Origin: Escherichia phage JEP8
Strand: one strand, 5' to 3'
Sequence record: MT764208.1
DNA length: 64,000 nt
In this document: one piece after another, positions 19,126-19,869 of the stretch
Numbering within the stretch: position 1 is the first letter of the stretch
How the letters are laid out: the number at the start of each line of letters is the position of its first letter
Notes under the pieces: model-generated
What the model was told of the DNA's origin: nothing
The model's input: only the letters and a program-made list of their open reading frames with translations
The model's database searches: none
Program-made: the position numbers and the translations under genes

Positions 19126-19869
19126 TCATTCTCCGTCAGTTCGTTTCAGGTATTCCAACGCTGCATATAGTCTTTGCGGATCGTCTTTGAACATTCCTAA
19201 TCCGGCGTTACATTTTCCACAAAGAACACCTCTTATCTTACCAGTCTTATGATTATGGTCAAGATGTTTCCACTTTTGGCGTTTTCTCTCGCCGCATCGT
19301 TCATTTATGAATTTTACACCGCATATCTCGCAATTGTCAACTCTGTCTAAAATTTCTAACGCTTCTCGTTTTGTTATTTTTATACCATCTTCGGCGTGGT
19401 GATATGGTCTATCTAGTTCTCGTTCTCGTTTCTCAAACAATCGACACTCATCAGAACAATACTTTTGAGATGCGTTTATTGCAACAAATGGTTTACCACA
19501 TTTAGCGCATTCTCGTTCAATCTTTATGTTTTGTGCCTGATCCAACGATGCGCAACGAGAACAGCAAAATTTATGATAGCCTCTAGAGTATGTATGATAA
19601 TTTACAGGATTTGGGCATCTTGCACATTTAACTATTCCTGTTATTCCGTGGCGCAATCTATAAACAGCCTCGTTATATGGTTGTTGATTTCTGAGACCTC
19701 CATTACAGAACTTAAACTCATTCCTTATAATCTGAAATTCCGCAGGATACAATTTTTCCATTTCTGGAATTTTATTTTCTTTAAAAAGATTTGAGTTTAG
19801 TCTATTTCCGCTTTTCGCCTCCAGAACATCAACAATAAACTTTTTGATGTTCACTTTTTCTCTCTCCAA
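19126..19869 (-). CDS. putative homing endonuclease: zinc-finger N-terminus plus endonuclease VII-like domain (start TTG/GTG uncertain)
   Basis: Several CxxC pairs; C-terminal [24 protein letters not shown] matches the endonuclease VII/HNH motif. Confidence 0.6.
   Translation of the reverse strand: [247 protein letters not shown]

Follow-up and report, generated by a model that had tools for sequence, protein, structure and literature searches.

The free-standing endonuclease genes of phage T4, seg and mob, are promoter-less cassettes which typically have GTG or other non-AUG starts and overlap the open reading frame (ORF) upstream (PMC2988022). MobA is inserted at about nucleotide (nt) 1400 of the topoisomerase gene and splits it into genes 39 and 60 (bioRxiv 10.1101/2022.08.31.505936). 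Another family of homing enzymes, founded by F-CphI of cyanophage S-PM2, is characterised by the endonuclease VII (Endo VII) motif DHHRN, which supports site-specific homing cleavage; Fang et al. (2018) placed gp6 of phage VR7 as a probable free-standing homing endonuclease in the endonuclease clade (PMC6083498). Here we describe a gene of Escherichia phage JEP8, found in a stretch of 64,000 nt of sequence record MT764208.1 (the window), which encodes an Endo VII-type protein and lies immediately ahead of gene 39, the gene for the topoisomerase II large subunit. Very probably the gene encodes a free-standing homing endonuclease with the Endo VII motif (DHHRN type, like F-CphI) and is carried as a promoter-less cassette between ORF006.1 with the gene-39 promoter and the start of gene 39. 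This reading is derived from an intact nuclease, dispensability of the gene, a precise insertion polymorphism, fidelity to one site across deep divergence and linked changes on the target side. The features concerned are the following; residue numbers refer to the 242-residue form of the protein unless the 247-residue form is stated.

19126..19854, minus strand: predicted coding sequence of a 242-residue Endo VII-type (DHHRN) endonuclease (GTG 19854-19852, TGA 19128-19126).
19120..19871, minus strand: inserted segment of 752 nt replacing 13 nt (AAGAGGTTTAATA) of Phi1 and G37-3, from alignments.
17296..19119, minus strand: gene 39 in its fused 60+39 form, 607 residues, topoisomerase II large subunit, from the ORF listing and the Phi1 annotation.
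19851..19961, minus strand: ORF006.1, 36 residues, hydrophobic; its stop overlaps the endonuclease start.

A sequence-only reading of the window had pointed to a 247-residue ORF at 19126-19869 and had attributed to its product several CxxC zinc-binding pairs and a C-terminal endonuclease VII-type motif, with a nuclease-family match as the test. The ORF is real and stands in the ORF listing of the window with a TTG start at 19126..19869, on the minus strand, which the reading had not stated. The Pfam family Endonuclease_7 (PF02945) matched residues 163-242 of the 247-residue form with E=1.3e-16 and 60.7 bits (cut-off 23.6) and includes the C-terminal motif, and PHROG 'endonuclease VII' families matched with E down to 1.5e-21. 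As judged by sequence comparison, these nuclease-family matches are far beyond chance. The protein can be divided into three parts.

19144..19383, minus strand: C-terminal Endonuclease_7 / beta-beta-alpha-Me domain with zinc site C175, C178, C212, C215 and active site D199, H200, H202, R208, N216.
19444..19626, minus strand: two tandem Cys4 zinc modules, C77/C80/C97(98)/C101 and C116/C119/C133/C137.
19639..19854, minus strand: N-terminal helical region, residues 1 to about 72, from the AF2 model; found only in copies adjoining gene 39.

Alignment with the solved T4 endonuclease VII paired D199, H200, H202 and R208 with D40, H41, H43 and R54, and C212, C215 and N216 with C58, C61 and N62. The pattern CX2-4C...DH(D/N)H...R...CX2C-N is present as C175-x2-C178, D199-H200-N201-H202, R208 and C212-x2-C215-N216, and the protein conforms to the beta-beta-alpha-metal fold. 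All five DHHRN residues (D199, H200, H202, R208 and N216; PMC6083498) are located in the C-terminal half of the 242-residue protein. No zinc ligand or catalytic residue of T4 Endo VII or F-CphI is missing, and all are invariant or nearly so across 50 homologues; T4 E65 is replaced by L219, and likewise in Hpy99I. Six Cys pairs (C77/C80, C97(98)/C101, C116/C119, C133/C137, C175/C178 and C212/C215) form three Cys4 sites, as the predicted CxxC pairs had suggested. The two tandem modules follow the pattern CxxC...(K/Y)(F/Y)C(S/C)xxC, near-invariant in the 50 homologues, and gave matches to the treble-clef/zinc-ribbon Pfam families YacG, DUF2116 and Zn_ribbon_recom, all of them sub-threshold.

The AF2 model of the N-terminal region comprises helices H3-11, H21-24, H29-35, H37-47 and H61-69 with a mean pLDDT of 88.5. 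Residues 1-60 gave no Pfam or PHROG match, the whole region of about 72 residues is without a family match, and just seven proteins among 5.8 billion clusters showed full-length coverage. This region is presumed to be the specificity or DNA-binding determinant. The ratio dN/dS among Krischvirus endonuclease alleles was 0.07-0.13, which indicates that the protein is made and under selection, and 12 of 12 database copies of the gene are intact.

The start codon, which the sequence-only reading had left undecided between TTG and GTG, is almost certainly the GTG at 19854, giving 242 residues. Five nt ahead of it (9 nt, if counted from GGAG) lies a Shine-Dalgarno sequence at 19867-19860, and the start codon shares nucleotides with the TGA of ORF006.1 (GTGA).

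19860..19867, minus strand: Shine-Dalgarno sequence GGAGAGAG for the GTG start, a consensus match within the inserted DNA.

The same GTG is annotated in the GenBank records of E26, G5211 and PHB13. The corresponding codon is ATG in a metagenomic homologue of 77% identity, where GGAGAG is conserved ahead of it, and GTG in a homologue of 62% identity. No Shine-Dalgarno sequence was found for the TTG at 19869. A hairpin hiding the Shine-Dalgarno sequence was considered and rejected, as the predicted RNA fold leaves both this sequence and the GTG unpaired.

The window belongs to an RB49-like Krischvirus; over 1 kb around the gene the identity is 99.3% with E26 and 96.6-97.5% with eleven further Krischvirus genomes. 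The endonuclease gene is present in 12 of the 58 database genomes of this genus, and RB49, Phi1, JSE, GEC-3S and ECD7 are among those without it. Carriers span species: E26 is assigned to 'gec3s' and PHB13 to 'RB49', and the type phages of both species are without the gene. In empty genomes ORF006.1 abuts gene 39 in the order ...GGTTATGTTATG-AAGAGGTTTAATA-ATGAGT. The left junction of the insertion follows ...GGTTATGTTATG (19872) and the right junction is located at the ATG of gene 39, where codon 2 changes from AGT in empty genomes to TCT in carriers; the junction was read by eye and confirmed in further alignments. The inserted DNA supplies its own Shine-Dalgarno sequence, the endonuclease gene and a new Shine-Dalgarno sequence for gene 39, and it rewrites the last six codons of ORF006.1 from …VMKRFNNE* to …VMYWREKK*. 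Such a presence/absence polymorphism at a fixed site with nucleotide-precise junctions is what homing endonuclease genes in general show.

The same site is occupied in other T4-like lineages, and each full-length homologue with examined context directly precedes the gene for the topoisomerase large subunit. Such is the position of the metagenomic homologue of 77% identity (L012), of the homologue of 62% identity on a 169-kb metagenomic phage contig (L011), and of homologues of 40-45% identity in the Gaprivervirus phages VR7, VR26, RZ and TH15 and in L015; the assignment of the gene 39 orthologues in L011 and L015 is backed by Pfam domains. Within Gaprivervirus the gene is sporadic too. Remoter relatives have only the zinc modules and the nuclease domain in common and occupy other genomic sites. 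The element upstream of the site in Gaprivervirus is a terminator with a T4 middle-type promoter. Comparison of the empty sites of Krischvirus and Gaprivervirus revealed no obvious shared nucleotide motif, which is unsurprising given the protein identity of 40-45%. The intergenic site is variable in several ways, as RZ and SP18-type Gaprivervirus carry an extra RB69ORF005c-like ORF of about 400 nt (L005 3038-3451; L010 1815-2213) between 39.1 and gene 39 or the endonuclease gene.

In each carrier lineage a changed 5' stretch of gene 39 begins at the junction.

18403..19119, minus strand: divergent 5' portion of gene 39, nt 1-717, in linkage with the endonuclease gene; window compared with Phi1.

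Between the window and Phi1 the divergence is 24% over nt 1-717 of gene 39 and about 4% beyond; 172 of the 214 differences are located in nt 1-717, with 26 in the first 60 nt. On either side of the tract, in the more 3' part of gene 39 and, directly past the cassette, towards ORF006.1, identity is 96-100%. At the protein level, 41 of the 47 amino acid changes from Phi1 are found in the first 239 residues of gp39, with a cluster at 192-207, and six in the remaining 368; the ATPase-domain variants of window and Phi1 might differ functionally. All 12 Krischvirus carriers have the window-type class of gene-39 allele (92-99.5% identity); for 45 non-carriers of the genus the identity is about 82%, and the first 54 nt are unalignable. 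A donor of the divergent tract was not identified among the best DNA matches outside Krischvirus (67%) and the metagenomic relatives (63-78%).

The Gaprivervirus carriers showed two further forms of this linkage. VR7 differs from the empty VR20 at 18 positions in the first 60 nt of gene 39, 15 of them silent, and at none in the next 180 nt, and the 190 nt upstream are identical (hypergeometric P=1.4e-9). The changed tract covers the first ~57 nt; its silent changes include AGC/TCG serine and TTA/CTC leucine switches. RZ and VR26 diverge from VR20 by about 30% over about 1.2 kb and by 2-5% outside, and their gene-39 allele was found in carriers only. Target-site differences or co-converted flanks of this kind fit homing but do not prove it.

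These properties can be compared with those of the described systems. With F-CphI the window protein shares the C-terminal Endo VII motif, the conserved D, H, H, R and N and both CxxC pairs, and in both cases a free-standing gene adjoins its target gene in a phage which has a separate resolvase as well. Unlike the window protein, F-CphI is shorter, with its catalytic region at residues 71-129, and the N-terminal region here is without detectable similarity, the F-CphI sequence itself not having been aligned. With regard to F-CphI, no intron or other Rfam family was found near the window gene; a group I intron or another structured RNA was rejected after an Rfam scan of 16000-21500 at E<=1 yielded no match. 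The closest relatives by organisation are VR7 gp6 (VR7ORF006c) and the proteins of VR26 and RZ, which have N-terminal helices, two Cys4 modules and a C-terminal Endo VII domain in the same order, use the same insertion point, are sporadic in their genus and are linked to a recoded or divergent gene-39 5' tract. They differ in genus and subfamily, the window phage being a Krischvirus outside Tevenvirinae, in the upstream gene (39.1 there, ORF006.1 here) and in the length of the linked tract (57 nt in VR7, 717 nt here). At 40-45% identity, the sequence specificity of the window enzyme probably differs from that of this group. The window protein may belong to the endonuclease clade rather than to the resolvase clade, its full-length homologue VR7 gp6 being placed there and its similarity to the clade member Hpy99I exceeding that to T4 Endo VII.

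T4 MobA is likewise free-standing and has the same target gene; its GTG start and its overlap with the ORF ahead of it are also found in the window gene (PMC2988022; bioRxiv 10.1101/2022.08.31.505936), and its 'homR' replacement target sequence is comparable to the 57-nt tract of VR7. MobA belongs to the HNH Mob family, in contrast to the Endo VII type found here, and a Pfam scan gave no HNH-family match to the window protein; the two enzymes are unrelated. In T4 the topoisomerase gene is split mid-way and a 50-nt translational bypass accompanies MobA, whereas in the window the insertion lies ahead of the start codon, gene 39 is whole and nothing resembling the bypass is present.

The proposal of a homing endonuclease associated with the 39/60 region thus stands in part. 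Its tie to gene 39 is strongly supported by the presence/absence pattern, the shared site and the recoded tracts; the tie to the 39/60 split is not. The fused 607-residue form of gene 39 had been recognised correctly (17296-19119, called 'gp60+39' in the Phi1 annotation). The statement that the ORF lies where T4 carries gene 60 and mobA was wrong: both lie 3' of gene 39 and the ORF lies 5'. The T4 transcription order is 39.2, 39.1, 39, mobA, 60.1, 60, and the ORF, immediately 5' of the gene 39 start codon, occupies the equivalent of the T4 39.1/39 intergenic region. The endonuclease gene has nothing to do with gene 39 being fused or split. On the minus strand of the window the order is dda, dexA, 39.2 (Zn_ribbon_8), ORF006.1, the endonuclease ORF, gene 39, four small ORFs and rIIA. 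Phi1 has an additional ORF009.1 (177 nt; L002 4176-4352) between ORF009 and ORF010 which is absent from the window (at about 21041) and from E26, another small indel of the same early region.

No obvious promoter was found within the cassette. Upstream of it, inside ORF006.1, lies the following element.

19889..19948, minus strand: sigma-70-like promoter TTGACA-16-TATGAT (19948-19921), followed by a 14-bp stem-loop (19921-19889); consensus scan, fold z=-4.5.

The promoter with its stem-loop is also present in empty-site phages and resembles a PeSL element. Transcription of gene 39 and, in carriers, of the endonuclease gene as well probably starts from it. As it lies within ORF006.1, it is doubtful whether ORF006.1 is truly a gene and not a regulatory region. 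A T4-type late promoter for the cassette was rejected, the sole TATAAATA of the whole window lying at 371; this single occurrence in 64 kb compares with 5.9 expected from shuffles.

We propose the following mechanism for the homing endonuclease. The gene would be co-transcribed with gene 39 early in infection and modestly translated, either from the GTG with its own Shine-Dalgarno sequence or by coupling to ORF006.1. The N-terminal helices and the two Cys4 modules would recognise a specific sequence in a co-infecting relative which has neither cassette nor endonuclease gene, either at the junction or in or close to the initial ~60 nt of gene 39; gene 39 is presumed to be the target gene. The beta-beta-alpha-Me domain would then nick or cut the DNA, with D199 and N216 holding Mg2+, H200 acting as general base and the Cys4 zinc being structural. 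Recombination-dependent phage repair would copy the cassette out of the carrier genome, and neighbouring gene-39 sequence would be co-converted, from which the foreign or recoded 5' tract observed in every carrier would follow. Sequence differences, a disrupted junction or both would shield the carrier from its own enzyme. From these patterns, 18403-19119 is predicted to hold the immunising differences and the counterpart of the cleavage site of endonuclease-free alleles, most likely within the first ~60 nt of gene 39 (19060-19119).

Several points weigh against the homing endonuclease. The placement of the target site is derived from polymorphism patterns only, and the promoter and Shine-Dalgarno assignments are consensus matches and nothing else. 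In G37-3 the gene-39 allele is of the carrier type (98.3% identical to G5211) although the junction is empty, so the divergent allele can occur without the endonuclease gene, and the 717-nt tract may represent ordinary mosaicism which received the gene rather than co-conversion. Furthermore, the left junction lies 17 nt past the PeSL-like promoter and stem-loop, and PeSL elements, described for RB49 and Phi1, were proposed to shuffle modules of RB49-like phages independently of endonucleases (PMC2839356).

The last two points lead to the best surviving alternative, which we consider unlikely: a passive cargo module whose patchy occurrence and linked tracts result from homologous or PeSL recombination, with a nuclease that does not drive the spread and could be decaying or otherwise useful to the phage. 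A PeSL-like promoter and stem-loop directly upstream of the left junction, the PeSL recombination documented for RB49 and Phi1 (PMC2839356), the divergent G37-3 allele without the endonuclease gene and the general mosaicism of the region all agree with such a module. The right junction, however, has no second PeSL and lies inside the first codons of an essential gene, and the family occupies the same nucleotide-level position in at least three lineages which share no PeSL. Random mosaicism does not explain the silent recoding of 57 nt in VR7 with perfect identity on either side, and strong purifying selection together with intact catalytic residues speaks against decay.

Somewhat less probable still is a nuclease for competition or exclusion which cuts the DNA of co-infecting relatives (or of the host), conversion of the cassette being incidental. 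The evidence for a nuclease is the same as for homing, the Seg and Mob enzymes of T4 partially exclude markers of relatives (PMC2988022), and Helicobacter members of the clade are restriction enzymes, e.g. Hpy99I (PMC6083498). Hpy99I (PDB 3FC3, 3GOX) was the best match among solved structures by sequence (E=6.5e-9), with T4 Endo VII behind (5e-3); the similarity includes the helix after the active site (FKDNPKFLEKVIEYLKK) and the structural Cys4 zinc. Hpy99I is a bacterial type II restriction enzyme accompanied by a methylase, recognises CGWCG as a dimer and has an unrelated N-terminal part, and no methylase or other self-protection gene was found among the ORFs neighbouring the endonuclease gene. 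Exclusion is for the most part the homing mechanism viewed differently; strict positional linkage to gene 39 in the several lineages is predicted by homing and not required of general exclusion.

A second Holliday-junction resolvase or recombination endonuclease, paralogous to gp49, appears very improbable. The Pfam Endonuclease_7 match and some GenBank records which label the gene 'recombination endonuclease' or 'endonuclease VII' would point to it, and the catalytic core is identical in layout to that of T4 gp49. However, T4 gp49 has its motif at the N-terminus, followed by the C-terminal dimerisation domain PF09124, and is a structure-specific resolvase encoded by a core gene. The true gp49 of the window is encoded by the ORF at 55331-55804 (minus strand), as this product combines Endonuclease_7 with the T4 Endo VII dimerisation domain PF09124 (E=6e-17). 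A Pfam scan did not find PF09124 in the 242-residue protein, and the distinction between the two ORFs drawn from the letters alone was therefore right. In the window protein the motif is C-terminal, as opposed to the N-terminal position in the resolvase clade (PMC6083498), and T4 E65 is replaced by L219. The absence of the gene from 46 of the 58 Krischvirus genomes, including RB49, Phi1, JSE and GEC-3S, indicates that it is dispensable and not a gp49-type core gene. A search of the window for a second copy or paralogue returned gp49 alone, and weakly (E=0.17). In the gp49 of the window, RVRGLLHSCCNRLEG stands in place of T4 KVRGLLCNLCNAAEG: His takes the position of the zinc ligand Cys58, a Cys follows two residues later, and the zinc site may be altered.

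Finally, a YacG-like zinc-finger regulator (inhibitor) of the adjoining topoisomerase, fused to a nuclease domain, is barely credible and was rejected: a weak Pfam YacG match of one zinc module (E=0.029, 14.5 bits), one distant homologue named 'YacG/DUF329' by JGI and the neighbouring gyrB-like gene speak for it, but the match is well under the Pfam cut-off of 25.5 bits and the zinc modules also occur in Endo VII-type proteins of T7-like phages, Felix-O1-like phages and actinophages without any topoisomerase context.

Beyond the window gene itself, chances appear evenly balanced that an old Endo VII-type homing lineage has specialised on the start of the topoisomerase gene and can be tracked through at least three T4-like lineages, namely Krischvirus, Gaprivervirus and the unclassified 169-kb metagenomic phage, each transfer bringing along a new 5' piece of this essential gene, from a silently recoded 57 nt to about 1.2 kb.

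Endonuclease genes of other families were also observed around the topoisomerase gene. In the Klebsiella T4-like phages Wolf_ER13 (MK/PP738762), Nispero (OL539458) and KMI12 (MN101226), genes annotated 'HNH endonuclease' or 'GIY-YIG homing endonuclease' adjoin its 5' end, which seems to attract such genes too. G37-3 and G5211 (L003, L007 731-1294, minus strand) have a 187-residue HNH_3 + AP2 ORF (Pfam 6.3e-14) between ORF005 and the 3' end of gene 39; the window has no ORF at the equivalent position, about 17292. The closest match of this ORF, according to the G5211 record, is JSE protein EpJSE_00005. It appears to be another free-standing homing endonuclease gene, not related to that of the window, located on the opposite side of the topoisomerase gene.

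The family described here is already known, copies that are almost identical carry the annotation '(putative) endonuclease' or 'endonuclease VII', and cleavage by the member from the window is a prediction. The start codon, the exact junctions, the site fidelity in multiple lineages and the prediction of a target site are added by this work; general concepts are left unaltered. Public labels such as 'recombination endonuclease VII', 'endonuclease' and 'hypothetical protein' would be replaced by that of a mobile homing endonuclease gene rather than of an additional resolvase. The first ~60 nt of RB49/Phi1-type gene 39 constitute a predicted target in a family of which F-CphI is the sole characterised enzyme. 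If the reading of an old lineage specialised on this site is true, the topoisomerase gene would be a homing hotspot with multiple ends, occupied mid-gene by MobA, at the 3' end by HNH_3-AP2 genes (G37-3, G5211, JSE) and at the 5' end by HNH/GIY-YIG genes (Klebsiella phages). A selfish element would then drive the replacement of topoisomerase ATPase-domain alleles, here with 41 changes in the first 239 residues. In therapeutic RB49-like coliphages the gene for the topoisomerase would owe its mosaic structure to the linked selfish element, and this mosaicism bears on phylogeny, typing and recombination analyses.

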